A stretch of DNA of 47,619 bases, from positions 1 to 47,619 of the IMG/VR virus record IMGVR_UViG_2541047828_000005; one strand, written 5' to 3'. The number at the start of each line of letters is the position of its first letter. Position 1 is the first letter of the stretch. Below, piece after piece: positions 10,248-38,407 of the stretch. The position numbers and the translations under genes were made by a program. Source of the DNA: a virus (lineage: Duplodnaviria; Heunggongvirae; Uroviricota; Caudoviricetes). Under the pieces are notes generated by a model. It saw only the letters and a list, made by a program, of their open reading frames with translations, had not been told where the DNA came from and did not search any database.

Positions 10248-10310
10248 AGTATCACCGCCAGTGGTATTTATGTCAACACCGCCAGAGATAATTTATCACC
10301 GCAGATGGTT
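10248..10310 (-). promoter_or_regulatory. PL promoter with OL1 (10250-10266), OL2 (10274-10290), OL3 (10294-10310)
   Basis: Operators TATCACCGCCAGTGGTA, CAACACCGCCAGAGATA, TATCACCGCAGATGGTT match lambda; -35 TTGACA and -10 GATACT on minus strand. Confidence 0.85.
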
Positions 10311-10492: not shown

Positions 10493-11143
10493 TTATTGCT
10501 TAGGAGCTTGTTGTGATGACGATTGGTTAGTTGGAGCGCTCGTTAATGGTTGCTGTGTCGGTACCTGTATTATAATTGGAGCCGGGCTGGTTACTGATGG
10601 TGACTTGTCATTGCCGGAGATAATCCAACTTGAGGCTAACATCACGCCAGACAGAATCACAGTAACTAAAGTCAAGCCAACGGCCATCGCCCACTGAGTC
10701 GTTGTAAGTCCCGTTTTCAAACCGCCGATTTCACCTTTAATTTCAGCAATACCTCTCTCAATAGAAGAAAATTGCTGAGTATAATAGGTTTTAAAGTCAG
10801 CTGATTCGCGACGCATTTCCGCAGCAATAGACTCTACCTCTGATTTGTTTTGTGAAAGCTTTGCGTCAAGTTCTTCTCTGGACATTCCGCTCACGCTTAC
10901 CTCCAGGGTATCACTCTTCATCGCTACATCTTCCTTACTTGGGCGCAAACCCGTTTCGTCCATGGCGTATGAAACTCTATTTGATACCTTAGCATCAATA
11001 CCAATACTTTGGTACTGAGATGGATCCCCATAAGGAGAAACGGTTGTCGCTGCTAGGGTTGCACTAACTATAATACTTGGAAGAACTGATGATGTTGTTC
11101 CTGAGGTAGGTTGAACTGAAGAAACTGGCTTCAGTCTTTCCAT
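10493..11143 (-). CDS. Membrane-anchored coiled-coil protein in the rexB position, 216 aa (start uncertain)
   Basis: Ser/Thr-rich N region, coiled coil, single TM (TQWAMAVGLTLVTVILSGVMLASSWII), S/T/P/Q-rich tail; overlaps upstream gene by 13 nt. Confidence 0.55.
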   Translation of the reverse strand: MERLKPVSSVQPTSGTTSSVLPSIIVSATLAATTVSPYGDPSQYQSIGIDAKVSNRVSYAMDETGLRPSKEDVAMKSDTLEVSVSGMSREELDAKLSQNKSEVESIAAEMRRESADFKTYYTQQFSSIERGIAEIKGEIGGLKTGLTTTQWAMAVGLTLVTVILSGVMLASSWIISGNDKSPSVTSPAPIIIQVPTQQPLTSAPTNQSSSQQAPKQ

Positions 11144-11397
11144 AGCCCATTATCCCTGAGAGCTACCTGTAATGATTTTACTAATGCAACAGCTTGATCC
11201 GGGCTCATTGAGACTGACATGTTAGGGGTCAACTCAACTTTTACTTGGAAGCTATTCTTTCCTTGCTCATCAGACTGCATGTGATGCTCAAATTCATGGC
11301 GGTAAAAAGTAATGATTGTTTCAGCACGATCAGGCGTAATAAGAACTGATGTGGCGGTCATGTGCTGAGGTATGATTTTAATAGTGTTATCTGACAT
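11131..11397 (-). CDS. Soluble 88-aa protein in the rexA position
   Basis: Start chosen at MSDNTIKII with AAGGA SD 5 nt upstream; track ORF extends to 11538 without SD. Confidence 0.5.
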   Translation of the reverse strand: MSDNTIKIIPQHMTATSVLITPDRAETIITFYRHEFEHHMQSDEQGKNSFQVKVELTPNMSVSMSPDQAVALVKSLQVALRDNGLWKD

Positions 11398-11589
11398 AAG
11401 TATCCTTTTTGTTTCCTTAGTATTTTTTTGCATTGACATCAGAAATAGCGAATCCACAAGAGTATGAGTAAAGCTAATCAGTTTAGTGATACGGTGACTA
11501 TTAAAGTGGTAAACCACATCAAAGCTCGCAGAGTGCATACCAGGCTGTCACACATGACAAAGTAACGAGGATGCCTGATCTCATAGCGC

Positions 11590-11822: not shown

Positions 11823-12539
<717 letters not shown>

Positions 12540-12546
12540 TTAAATC

Positions 12547-12611
12547 TATCACCGCAAGGGATAAATATCTAACACCGTGCGTGTTGACTATTTTACCTCT
12601 AGCGGTGATAA
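12547..12611. promoter_or_regulatory. OR3 (12547-12563), OR2 (12570-12586), OR1 (12594-12610) with PR (-35 TTGACT 12584-12589, -10 GATAAT 12606-12611) and PRM
   Basis: Lambda operator sequences recognised; OR1 reads TACCTCTAGCGGTGATA (one base differs from lambda TACCTCTGGCGGTGATA). Confidence 0.9.
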
Positions 12612-12627
12612 TGGTTGCATGTACTAA

Positions 12628-12837
<210 letters not shown>

Positions 12838-12875
12838 GTAACACCGCTATTTTCACAATGGACATTCGTCCTACG

Positions 12876-13451: not shown

Positions 13452-14343
13452 CATATCTAATCTAGCCGAAGCCAGAGAGGCCAGAAGGCTACAACAACCG
13501 CATCAAAGCAGCGGTAAGGGGTATGCCTTGCTGCACCGTAAAATTATGGATGTGCCGTTTTACAAGGACGCAGAAGCTGCGCATCTGTGGGTTCACTTAA
13601 TCCTCAAAGCAAAGCATACGCCTGAGTATGCAATGACTGACGCAGGAGAAATTCTGGTAGGCAGAGGGAAGCTACTTGGCGGTAGAAACTCTCTGGCGTT
13701 TGAAACAGGACTCAAACCAGATCGCGTTCAGTACCTGCTTAGAAAGTTCAAAAAACTCGGCATGATTGACTGGGTTTCACACGGTAAATTCTCAGTTTTC
13801 TCGGTAGAGAAATATGACGATTATCAGTCAAATTTTGTACCAGCAGATTACCAGCAAATTACCACCTCAAAGCCAGCAATACCAATGCCTGCAAGCAATA
13901 CTGTACCAGCAGATTACCAGCAAATTACCACAGATAAAGAATATAATAATATTATCTCTAATACTGACGTATTAGAGAGTGCCACAGCAGACAAAAAGTC
14001 TGACAAGAAAAAACCTTCCGTTAGCTGTCAGGATGTTGTCGATGCTTACCACGAAATCCTTCCTGAAGCGCCAAGAATCCGCGCACTGAATGACAAGCGT
14101 AAAAACCAGATCCGAACGTTCTGGCGCAAAGCCGGAGTGATAACCCGCCAGCTTGACGGGCATGGGTTCACGATGCAGGACTGGAGAAATTATTTGAGCT
14201 ACGTAGGCGAAAATTGCCGATGGATGTTCGAAGAGCGCCCAAACCATCAGCGAGGAACCGTCTGGCACAAAAAGGGATTTGATTTCCTGCTTAACGATAA
14301 TACCTACCTGAAAGTTCGTGAGGGTGAACACGATGACCGATAA
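13444..14343 (+). CDS. Replication initiator (O-like / P22 gene 18-like), 299 aa
   Basis: Position after cII; contains internal iterons encoding [10 protein letters not shown] twice; followed by DnaB-type helicase. Confidence 0.75.
13838..13930. repeat. ori: Replication-origin iterons: two perfect 28-bp direct repeats (13838-13865, 13903-13930) followed by AT-rich stretch
   Basis: GTACCAGCAGATTACCAGCAAATTACCA repeated; AT-rich run at 13931-13960; lies inside the initiator gene as in lambda ori. Confidence 0.6.
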
Positions 14344-15769
14344 TTTTTATGCGCCGCCCCATAGCATCGAGGCAGAGCAGGCGGTGATTGGTGGATTGCT
14401 TCTGGATGATGACAGCAGTGAGCGCGTCCAGAAAGTTCTGGCGATGCTGAAGCCTGATTCATTTTACAGCCGACCACACAAAATCCTTTTCGAAGAAATA
14501 ACCAGAATGCACCGGGAGCAAAAGCCAGTAGATGGCCTGACGCTTTTCGATGAACTGGAGCGTAAATCGTTAACGGCGTCTGTTGGCGGTTTTGCTTATA
14601 TCGCTGAGATCGCAAAGAACACGCCAAGCGCAGCAAACATCGTTGCTTATGCAATGCAGGTTCGCGAAACCGCAATGGAACGCTACGCCATCAACCGCAT
14701 GACTGAAGCGACGGAATTGCTCTATTCCCGCAATGGAATGACTGCAACGCAGAAGTACGAAACTATTCAGGCGATTTTCACGCAACTGACAGACCATGCA
14801 AAAACCGGATCGCGTCGCGGCCTTCGCTCATTTGGTGAGGTCATGGAAGACTGGGTTAGCGACCTTGAGAAGCGATTTGATCCATCAGGCGAACAACGAG
14901 GAATGAGCACAGGGATCCCATCGCTGGACAGGATGCTGTCACCGAAAGGTCTGGTGAAAGGCTCTCTGTTTGTCATTGGCGCTCGCCCTAAGATGGGGAA
15001 AACGACGCTATACAGCCAGATGGCAATCAATTGCGCAGTGCATGAGAAAAAGCCCGCTCTGATGTTCAGCCTTGAAATGCCAGGTGATCAGATACTGGAA
15101 AAACTGGTAGGGCAGAAGTCTGGTGTTAACCCGAATATTTTTTACCTTCCGGCGACAAATGACGCCGATGACGGCTATCAGGGTGATTACGATGGTGACT
15201 TCAACAGGGCGATCGAAACAGCCAATCGCTTGAGTGAAATCGACATGCTTTACATCGACGACACGCCGGGATTATCTCTGGCTCAAATCGTCAGCGAAAG
15301 CCGTCGAATCAAGCGAGAAAAAGGATGTGTTGGCATGATTCTGGTCGATTACCTGACACTAATGACTGCTGAGAAGGCCGATCGCAACGACCTTGCTTAC
15401 GGCATGATCACCAAAGGACTGAAGAACCTTGCCAAAGAGCTTGATTGCGTTGTTGTGCTTCTGACACAGCTTAACCGCGCACTGGAAAGCCGAACCAATA
15501 AACGCCCATTACCAAGTGACTCACGAGATACAGGGCAGATTGAACAGGATTGCGATTATTGGGTTGGGATCCATCGTGAAGGCGCTTTTGATGACAGTGT
15601 TCCACCTGGTGAAACCGAACTAATCCTTCGTCTCAATCGTCATGGCAATACCGGCACGGTGTATTGCATTCAGGCAAATGGCGCTATTTATGACACAGAC
15701 CAACAGTCTGCTGAAATGCGCCGCCGTGAACGCGAGGAACCGCAATCCAAGAAGAAAGGAGGATTCTGA
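14333..15769 (+). CDS. DnaB-family replicative helicase (P22 gene 12-like), 478 aa
   Basis: Walker A GARPKMGKTT, DnaB-like motifs (LFVIGARP..., VDYLTLM); start at MTDNFY with GAGGG SD. Confidence 0.85.
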   Translation: MTDNFYAPPHSIEAEQAVIGGLLLDDDSSERVQKVLAMLKPDSFYSRPHKILFEEITRMHREQKPVDGLTLFDELERKSLTASVGGFAYIAEIAKNTPSAANIVAYAMQVRETAMERYAINRMTEATELLYSRNGMTATQKYETIQAIFTQLTDHAKTGSRRGLRSFGEVMEDWVSDLEKRFDPSGEQRGMSTGIPSLDRMLSPKGLVKGSLFVIGARPKMGKTTLYSQMAINCAVHEKKPALMFSLEMPGDQILEKLVGQKSGVNPNIFYLPATNDADDGYQGDYDGDFNRAIETANRLSEIDMLYIDDTPGLSLAQIVSESRRIKREKGCVGMILVDYLTLMTAEKADRNDLAYGMITKGLKNLAKELDCVVVLLTQLNRALESRTNKRPLPSDSRDTGQIEQDCDYWVGIHREGAFDDSVPPGETELILRLNRHGNTGTVYCIQANGAIYDTDQQSAEMRRREREEPQSKKKGGF

Positions 15770-34578: not shown

Positions 34579-36388
34579 TAAGTCGATCGTCGACATTGAC
34601 GTAAATGACGACAAGTTTGTCGCGTTTATGGAAAGGTTTCGCGAGTACCAGAGCGCGCTGGATGATTTACCGGAAGCCTGGCGGGTAGCTGCCGTTGGTA
34701 TTGGCGAAAGCAGCAAGCAGACCGAAAAGGCCAAAGGTGAGACGAAGGAGTTAGGCGCGGAGTTTAATGCCGTGGCCGAGGCCATTCTGACTATCAACAG
34801 TGGTATCGATCGGCTCAATACCAACCTGGAAGACTCGAAGAAAAAGCAGGACGAATTCAACAAAAGTACTCGCTCTGCGAAGGGATTCCTCAGCGATGCG
34901 ACGAAAGACGCTAAATCGCTGGCAGGGCATATCAAGGAAGCGACGGCCAGCCTTCTGTCATGGGGTGGCATTGTCGGGATATTTACCGGCGTCCTTGGCG
35001 TTGGCGGCCTGTTCGGCATCAACCGGCTGGCTGCCACCACCGGTGCCCAGCGGTTTACTTCTCTCGGGCTTGGGACGAGTATCGGCGCACTTGATTCCAC
35101 CGCCATAAACTACCAGAAAGCACTCGGTAATCCGACGGGTACGCTGGGCGCTATCCGCGATTCGCAAATGGACCTGTCGAAGCGCTGGACGTTTCAGGCG
35201 ATGGGGATTAACAACCCCGACCAGGACCCGGCCAAACTGCTCCCGCAGATGATCCGTAATGCGCGCGATATCTTCGTGCAGAACGGCAGCACGCTGCAGG
35301 GCGCACAGGCGCACGGCCTGACAAACTTCTTTACACTGGACGACCTGAACCGCTTCAAAAACATGAGCGATGAAGAGATCACCGCCATGGAGAAGCGCGC
35401 GCAGCAGGATGCGCGTATGTTGCAAATTACCGACCAGCAGGCGCGCCAGTGGCAGGATTTTAACGTCCAGCTCGACTACAGCAGCCAGAGCATCAGGAAT
35501 ACGTTTGTGCGCGGCCTGGGTCCTCTCACACCTCAACTGAGAAAACTGTCTGATGCGCTGTCAGGCGCGATCGATACCGTCCTGAAATCCCCCGAACTCG
35601 GCAAGTGGATTGATGCGCTTGCCGGCGGCATTGAGCGATTCGGTAATTACCTCGCTTCTCCTGAATTTTCCACAGATGTAAGCAACTTTATGGACAAAGT
35701 AGAGAAAATGGGAAATCTAATTGGCAAGGTTATTGATTGGGTAACAGGGAAAGCGAGTATCTCTACTGCGGATATATCATCCGGGTCAACGATGTTGAGC
35801 CCAAGCACCATCATCGATCCGAAAACGGGAAAATCCTATACTCCTGGAAGCAATGATGACCCGCATGTATGGGGCTGGCTCAAGGGTGTTAGGCGCTTCT
35901 TTGAAGATGGAACCGTTAAAGCTGTTGATCCCACACCTGCAAATACTTCCGACAGAAACAGGACTATTGCAGATCGATTTAATAATCCGGGAAATCTGCG
36001 GTGGGCTGAAGGATATAGCAGCGAGAATACGAGAAGCGGTAAATTTGCCGTCTTCCCAACGCTGGATGAAGGCGTACTGGCGGCGACAAAGCAACTTCAA
36101 ATGTATGGCGCTAAAGGAATAAATACGGTAGGAGATATTGTAAGAAAATGGGCTCCTCCTAAGGAAAATAATACCGCTGAGTATATTCGGCATGTGGTTA
36201 AAACTACTGGATTTAATGAGAATCAGAAACTGAATCTCAATGATCCTCAGGTTATCGCGAAACTCATTTCTGCTATATCTCAAAAAGAAGGGGCTGGTAG
36301 CAGAGTTTCTGAGAGCACAGTCATTCAGATCTATAACAATACCGGTGGGAATGCAGTGGTAACTTCAGCGCAATTGGGGGCGAGGTAA
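34571..36388 (+). CDS. Putative tail tape measure protein, 605 aa
   Basis: Position after chaperone; start at MVAKS with AAAGAGG SD. Confidence 0.6.
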   Translation: MVAKSIVDIDVNDDKFVAFMERFREYQSALDDLPEAWRVAAVGIGESSKQTEKAKGETKELGAEFNAVAEAILTINSGIDRLNTNLEDSKKKQDEFNKSTRSAKGFLSDATKDAKSLAGHIKEATASLLSWGGIVGIFTGVLGVGGLFGINRLAATTGAQRFTSLGLGTSIGALDSTAINYQKALGNPTGTLGAIRDSQMDLSKRWTFQAMGINNPDQDPAKLLPQMIRNARDIFVQNGSTLQGAQAHGLTNFFTLDDLNRFKNMSDEEITAMEKRAQQDARMLQITDQQARQWQDFNVQLDYSSQSIRNTFVRGLGPLTPQLRKLSDALSGAIDTVLKSPELGKWIDALAGGIERFGNYLASPEFSTDVSNFMDKVEKMGNLIGKVIDWVTGKASISTADISSGSTMLSPSTIIDPKTGKSYTPGSNDDPHVWGWLKGVRRFFEDGTVKAVDPTPANTSDRNRTIADRFNNPGNLRWAEGYSSENTRSGKFAVFPTLDEGVLAATKQLQMYGAKGINTVGDIVRKWAPPKENNTAEYIRHVVKTTGFNENQKLNLNDPQVIAKLISAISQKEGAGSRVSESTVIQIYNNTGGNAVVTSAQLGAR

Positions 36389-37373: not shown

Positions 37374-38407
37374 GATATTATGATATTGAGATAACCATTC
37401 CTGCTGAAGGCGCTTCTCCGGAAAGAACGATAAAATACAGTAGCCATAAGAACGGAGTTTACAACCCAGGCGCCCTGATGATTGAGTTTGATATCCTCAG
37501 GTACGGTGAATCGACTCCCCAGGGCGAGACTCACCTGGCCATCTGGGGTATTGGCCCAAAAGAAATGCAGCAGGCTCGCCAGAATTTTTTTGGCAAAAAA
37601 ATTAAAATATTCCTTGGGATGAAAGACGGGCTGCCATTGGCTGGCAAGGTTACCGCACCAAAACTGGTATTGGATGGCGTGATAAATCAGGTCTTTGGTA
37701 ACTGGCAGGGTATTGAGTTACGACTTGACTTCATAATCGTGGTTGGTCCTGTCCAGAACGTGCCAAATAACAAACCCGTACCCCTTCCTTTAACCTTTGA
37801 CTGGAAGGAGGGGCAGAAGCTTTCTGTAGCCCTCACGCAGTGTTTTATGAACATCAGAGGGTATACATTCAATATCAACATAAGCGACCGGCTAATCCTT
37901 AATCATTACCGGGGGCTGTTTTGTGATGACATTGTCACCCTGGCCAAGGACCTTAATGCTTTTTCACGTTCCAGAATTCGCGATAGCGGGTACTCTGGTG
38001 TAGAGATCGCAATAGTGAATGGTAATGAGATCCGGGTATGGGATAACGATTATGATAACCACCCGGATAAGACTTCTGTTTCCAGCGCCGTAGCCAGAAG
38101 CAACAGCCCAACCCAAATAGATTTCAAGGATTTGATAGGGCAGCCGACATGGGTGGCATTTAACACAATCAGCATGGCGTGCGTAATGCGCGGTGATATT
38201 CAGGTTGGCGATCACATCCTGATGCCTAAAAAAAGCACTCCGTTGATACAGGCCTCTTCGTACTCTCAGTATCGAGAAGACTCTGCCTTTACTGGCGACT
38301 TTATTGTGAACTCCGTTCGCCTGTTAGGGAATAGCAGGCAACCAACGGCAGAGGCATGGGTAACAATTATTGAGGCTTCCCCTTTCATTAAGGCAGGTAG
38401 TGCATGA
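37370..38407 (+). CDS. Putative baseplate hub protein, 345 aa
   Basis: Mu gpP-like position and size. Confidence 0.5.
   Translation: MRYYDIEITIPAEGASPERTIKYSSHKNGVYNPGALMIEFDILRYGESTPQGETHLAIWGIGPKEMQQARQNFFGKKIKIFLGMKDGLPLAGKVTAPKLVLDGVINQVFGNWQGIELRLDFIIVVGPVQNVPNNKPVPLPLTFDWKEGQKLSVALTQCFMNIRGYTFNINISDRLILNHYRGLFCDDIVTLAKDLNAFSRSRIRDSGYSGVEIAIVNGNEIRVWDNDYDNHPDKTSVSSAVARSNSPTQIDFKDLIGQPTWVAFNTISMACVMRGDIQVGDHILMPKKSTPLIQASSYSQYREDSAFTGDFIVNSVRLLGNSRQPTAEAWVTIIEASPFIKAGSA

Follow-up and report, generated by a model that had tools for sequence, protein, structure and literature searches.

A common natural allele of the right operator OR1 in a prophage with lambda immunity

We analyzed a 47,619-nucleotide stretch of viral DNA (positions 1 to 47,619 of IMG/VR record IMGVR_UViG_2541047828_000005, hereafter the window) in which the first right operator, OR1, carries an A at position 8 where phage lambda carries a G. 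We propose that A and G are two long-standing common alleles of the lambda-immunity right operator, and that the A allele is probably nearly neutral and leaves immunity specificity unchanged. The sequence identity and the population frequency of the allele were determined here, while its effect on the binding of lambda CI was taken from free-energy changes measured in vitro.

The OR1 operator and the surrounding region

The region between cI and cro was compared with reference lambda (NC_001416) by three-way and pairwise alignment. OR1 lies at 12594-12610 on the plus strand and reads TACCTCTAGCGGTGATA. The reference lambda OR1 (37998-38014, annotated as operator-r1) reads TACCTCTGGCGGTGATA, just as an earlier note on this DNA had given it. 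The sole mismatch in the intergenic region is the A at 12601 (plus strand), which faces a G at lambda 38005. The G → A difference in OR1 that the note reported is therefore confirmed, and reference lambda does not share the base of the window. The note had described the substitution as a central-position change; it adjoins the central pair but is not part of it, being at position 8 of 17, where the non-consensus half-site ends (TACCTCTG, G, CGGTGATA). OR2 (12570-12586, plus strand), OR3 (12547-12563, plus strand) and the left operators OL1 (10250-10266), OL2 (10274-10290) and OL3 (10294-10310), which occupy 10250-10310 on the minus strand, had been described as matching lambda, and the alignment bore this out with zero mismatches, the left operators corresponding to lambda 35591-35651. 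The whole OL region between window positions 10248 and 10329 was free of mismatches to lambda.

OR3, OR2 and OR1 stand with the lambda spacing between the divergent cI and cro genes; the sequence aligns colinearly and without gaps to lambda 37951-38014, the only mismatch being the one in OR1. Four operator-like matches were observed in the window compared with 0.06 expected by chance. The 1022-bp block that the window has in common with lambda (11827-12848) contains 24 mismatches (2.35%), and with this background divergence a single change in the six operators (102 bp) is about as many as expected or slightly fewer.

The promoter PR occupies 12584-12612 on the plus strand, with a -35 element TTGACT at 12584-12589, a 17-bp spacer and a -10 element GATAAT at 12607-12612; it was located by a promoter scan (10 of 12 matches) and agrees with the pR annotation of phage mEp234. 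The promoter PRM (12543-12571, minus strand, transcript start at the cI ATG at 12536) was assigned by homology, by transferring the annotation of mEp234 (EF120460, offset 9077), and its sequence is that of lambda. The hexamers of PR and PRM overlap OR1/OR2 and OR3/OR2, respectively, as they do in the lambda immunity region, and every feature by which a right operator of this immunity type can be recognized from sequence was found in the window. The prophage would presumably be homoimmune with lambda in function, that is, repressed by lambda CI and unable to plate on a lambda lysogen.

The PR start site was set at 12619 by homology to lambda and the mEp234 annotation, which places 12601 at -18. 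Since this base is within the 17-bp spacer, we considered the possibility that the change acts mainly on the strength of PR, through the sequence or conformation of the spacer, and not through repressor binding. The base is however part of neither the -35 nor the -10 hexamer and does not coincide with the extended -10 position, and we regard an effect of this kind as very improbable. A search of the literature for data on this base yielded only a G → T change in Lagator et al. (2017), which could not be mapped reliably. We set aside the in-vivo PR/CI data of that study because its data-sheet numbering and its list of mutants disagree, the same value for a single mutant being given under identities that cannot be reconciled.

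Effect of the allele on repressor binding

Table 3 of PMC2194778 lists the free-energy changes that Sarai and Takeda (1989) determined experimentally for all single substitutions of OR1. The position of the present allele is listed there as G10-C32; its replacement by A-T, which is the allele of the window, costs +0.4 kcal/mol, compared with +0.5 kcal/mol for T and +0.2 kcal/mol for C, and any substitution from C12 to T15 in the consensus half costs 2.0-3.7 kcal/mol. The value of +0.4 kcal/mol applies to lambda CI (Thr2, Lys70, Asp125) in filter binding to an isolated OR1, and not to the CI of this prophage or to a looped OR/OL complex (PMC2194778). At an RT of 0.546 kcal/mol (PMC2194778) it is equivalent to a 2.1-fold change in Kd, and the measured effect at this position is about the smallest in the operator. 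In the crystal structure 1LMB the N-terminal arm of CI on the non-consensus half is unresolved (PMC2194778), consistent with a weak reading of OR1 position 8. The effect of the substitution on the repressor was thus already published in 1989, and the OR1 variant is an ordinary one. We suggest that the changed base is located where the repressor reads the operator sequence least.

With the A allele, the intrinsic binding of CI to OR1 would be weaker by about 0.4 kcal/mol (about 2-fold); given the cooperative filling of OR1 and OR2, this loss should amount to a need for about 1.4-fold more CI dimer for equal repression of PR. We evaluated the shift with an occupancy model of OR using literature free energies, reportedly those of Koblan and Ackers from 1992, of -12.5, -10.5 and -9.5 kcal/mol for OR1, OR2 and OR3 and cooperativity terms of -2.7 and -2.9 kcal/mol. 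With +0.4 kcal/mol added at OR1, the model required 1.4-1.5-fold more CI dimer for 50-99% repression of PR, and at lysogenic CI concentrations the already tiny unrepressed fraction of PR roughly doubled. Lambda derivatives with whole-operator OR1/OR3 swaps are said to form inducible lysogens still (Little and coworkers, 1999), so the switch should stay intact under so small a change. We infer that in vivo the order of operator filling, the logic of the switch and the immunity specificity would all be unchanged. We searched the literature for an in-vivo measurement of this exact allele and found none.

The classical escape mutations in OR1 are v3 at lambda 38007 and vC1, vs387 and se109b at 38009 (PMC3349717). 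Each of them is a single-base change inside OR1, like the allele of the window; they are however in the consensus half, at OR1 positions 10 and 12, and substitutions at those two positions weaken binding by 2.5-3.7 kcal/mol, whereas the change of the window is at 38005 and costs 0.4 kcal/mol. The base at 38005 is not one whose replacement brings the strong loss of repressor binding that characterizes a virulence or operator-constitutive mutation, and identity with v3 or vC1 is ruled out by the coordinates (38005 versus 38007 and 38009).

Frequency of the allele in natural populations

We scanned IMG/VR with OR1 left fully free, using the right half of OR2 and the cro leader as anchors, and recovered 77 contigs; pooled with those of a first IMG/VR scan, these gave 85 contigs. 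Only two OR1 sequences were present among the 85, the A allele in 49 and the G allele in 36, and position 8 was the only variable OR1 position seen. When the 1022-bp cI-OR-cro block was reduced to distinct haplotypes (n = 49), 27 carried A and 22 carried G. About 556 of 5,426 complete E. coli genomes have this OR region, and allele-specific 33-mers assigned 177 of these to the A allele and 175 to the lambda-type G allele. In wild phages and prophages with lambda immunity, A is the more frequent of the two alleles.

Most of the remaining OR regions in E. coli belong to an over-sampled O157:H7 prophage haplotype, which is a third common OR haplotype. The O157:H7 prophages (EDL933, SS52; lambda-type cI and cro) carry G in OR1 and, at the central base of OR2, C in place of T. 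Their OR2-OR1 spacer reads ACTACTTT or ACTGCTTT instead of ACTATTTT, as aligned to window 12570-12593.

The same allele in 177 complete E. coli genomes and 49 IMG/VR contigs excludes a sequencing error. The idea that the A is an artefact, or a laboratory virulence or constitutive-type operator mutation such as v3 or vC1, can draw on nothing but the location in OR1. It has to face the presence of the same base in hundreds of independent genomes and phage isolates, and a site and a binding cost different from those of the virulence mutations, and we regard its probability as practically nil. The earlier note had left the choice between natural variation, a tuning of repressor or Cro affinity and an error in its lambda sequence: natural variation is upheld, an effect on repressor affinity exists but is small (+0.4 kcal/mol), and an error in the lambda sequence can be dismissed, as lambda has G.

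Position 12601 is the only polymorphism of intermediate frequency (27/22) in the 100-bp intergenic region, where every other site varies in at most 5 of the 49 haplotypes; the only other operator site that reaches 4 of 49 haplotypes is the central base of OR2. Operator variation of appreciable frequency was seen only at central positions (OR1 position 8 and OR2 position 9), which are the least sensitive for repressor binding, a minor example of purifying selection acting on a switch that has been studied in depth.

We also scanned species-representative genomes, where nearly all matches were laboratory lambda cI857 ind1 (cI A66T and E117K) in unrelated taxa. A lambda OR together with cI A66T and E117K was found on short or low-coverage contigs of Enterococcus, Marinobacter, Shewanella, Pseudomonas, Mycobacterium, Helicobacter and others. 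Since this pair of substitutions marks laboratory lambda cI857 ind1, these contigs represent assembly contamination, and for this reason the scan is uninformative for the natural frequency of the allele.

The cI and cro genes and the structure of the prophage

The cI gene (11823-12536, minus strand; Pfam HTH_3 and Peptidase_S24) encodes a repressor of 237 amino acids that equals lambda CI with T2A, K70N and D125N (mature numbering). None of the three substitutions is in helix 2-3, leaving the recognition helix unchanged. The cro gene (12637-12837, plus strand; Pfam Cro PF09048, 120 bits) encodes a protein of 66 amino acids that equals lambda Cro with K39N, the HK97 type. Codon 39 of cro is at window 12751-12753, and residue 39 follows the recognition helix of Cro.

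Codon 125 of cI is at window 12159-12161 on the minus strand, and D125N falls in the hinge and cleavage-site region, with the ind1 site E117K 8 residues away. Residue 125 may be an Ind- site, and the substitution might alter RecA-mediated cleavage and hence inducibility. D125N was absent from the approximately 100 lambda-immunity loci that we compared, its allele-specific 33-mer had 0 matches in the 5,426 complete E. coli genomes, and a literature search on it returned nothing.

The earlier note had treated the window implicitly as lambda, which the alignments do not support: judged by its sequence, the window is a mosaic HK97/HK106-like prophage at att-lambda with a lambda immunity region, and its divergence from lambda in the cI-OR-cro block is about 2.3%. 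For cI-cro-cII, the identity is 98.1% with HK97 (1.8 kb) and 98.3% with HK106 and mEp234, compared with about 97% with lambda, where the matching stretch is shorter. The first 21 kb of the window is a mosaic of HK106-, HK97- and HK022-like early genes. At its start a ybhC-like ORF (1-1284) precedes a lambda-type integrase gene (1419-2489), an arrangement that indicates integration at the lambda attachment site. Over about 23 kb (24001-47619) the late genes share about 95% identity with Klebsiella phage vB_Kpn_Chronis, and the right end of the window is similar to the b region of lambda. The window is a segment of a chromosome and does not contain attR.

Between OL and cI, rexA and rexB are replaced at 10493-11538 by ORFs of 216 and 135 amino acids, which match HK97 gp48 and gp49. 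The replication module (14318-15769) contains a DnaB-like helicase (483 amino acids) and not lambda P, and the helicase gene is preceded by an initiator like P22 gp18 and HK97 O.

Association of the OR1 allele with Cro and CI variants

We compared the OR1 alleles with the Cro and CI types of the 49 haplotypes, which are phylogenetically non-independent. The A allele was found with a variant Cro in 22 haplotypes and with wild-type Cro in 5, and the G allele with a variant Cro in 4 and with wild-type Cro in 18 (Fisher p = 1e-5, odds ratio about 20 for A with a non-lambda Cro). The K39N Cro was beside an OR1 A in 13 of its 14 distinct haplotypes, and the M12I+V55I type of Cro always was. The A allele was also associated with Ala2 of cI (26/1 versus 13/9, p = 0.003).

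These associations, together with the balanced frequencies of the two bases at 12601, unlike any other site in the intergenic region, and the measurably weaker CI binding, are what one would cite for adaptive tuning: the A would be kept by selection for a shifted set-point (easier induction or an altered Cro/CI balance at OR1), matched to the co-travelling variants of Cro (K39N, or M12I+V55I) and CI (T2A, K70N). Selection could yield the association of the A allele with variant Cro as well as linkage could. However, OR1 is 36 bp from the start of cro, on its downstream side, and 58 bp from that of cI, on its upstream side; at such distances linkage is expected by itself to produce the association of OR1 with Cro and CI, and the haplotypes are not independent samples of it. 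All four combinations occur in nature, both for the OR1 allele and cI residue 2 and for the OR1 allele and Cro type. Linkage disequilibrium was moderate (r2 at most 0.57); the amino-acid-changing sites had r2 values of 0.21-0.23, which do not exceed those of distant silent sites (0.40-0.57 at up to 520 bp). The measured effect on CI is moreover about the smallest in the operator. It also counts against tuning that any amino acid is reportedly tolerated at residue 2 of the CI arm (Clarke and coworkers, 1991). Overall, we consider adaptive tuning unlikely.

For A with cI T2A or Cro K39N, the linkage disequilibrium and the four-gamete tables show an association but nothing beyond linkage, and we do not favour co-adaptation. 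The association probably reflects linkage in a mosaic, recombining block, with no specific sign of compensation, and the A allele would have been inherited with an HK97-type immunity haplotype. We likewise consider it unlikely that G and A are balanced, selected set-point alleles of two lineages, with OR1 affinities matched to Lys39 as against Asn39 or Ile12/Ile55 in Cro; if they were, the lineages would differ in their thresholds for spontaneous induction or for the lysis-lysogeny decision while keeping cross-immunity.

The textbook lambda OR1 represents only one of the two natural alleles that are common, and among wild isolates it may be the rarer of them. The A allele could serve as a mild natural allele in experiments on the set-point of the switch, although it raises no new question and matters little otherwise.

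Comparison with known systems

Allele-specific 33-mers identified the A allele in HK97, HK106, mEp234, CL707, HK542, HK244 and PhiR5_2. In mEp234, HK106, CL707, HK542 and HK244 (EF120457-EF120461) it is part of a feature annotated as 'operator oR1', and OR1 of the window is identical to that of mEp234 (EF120460). In HK542 and HK244 the 33-mer matched with one additional mismatch. The flanking genes of these wild phages differ from those of the window, as with hicAB in mEp234. We take these records to be the immunity regions sequenced for Degnan and coworkers in 2007, in keeping with their 'immunity region' annotations. The OR1 A allele is therefore already known as the HK97 type, deposited in 2000 and again in 2007.

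Lambda and the window agree in 16 of the 17 bases of OR1 and in its placement relative to OR2, OR3, PR, PRM, cI and cro. Unlike the window, lambda has G at OR1 position 8, Thr2 and Lys70 in CI, Lys39 in Cro and rexAB between OL and cI. The right operator of HK97 (NC_002167, 28963-29026; Juhala et al. 2000), whose 'OR; operator' feature includes OR1, is part of 161 bp identical to the window, spanning the start of cI, OR3-OR2-OR1, PR and the start of cro and including both the OR1 A and the codon for T2A of cI. HK97 and the window are also alike in having gp48/gp49-like genes in place of rexAB, whereas the window differs from HK97 in the additional D125N of its CI and in late genes that are unrelated to those of HK97.
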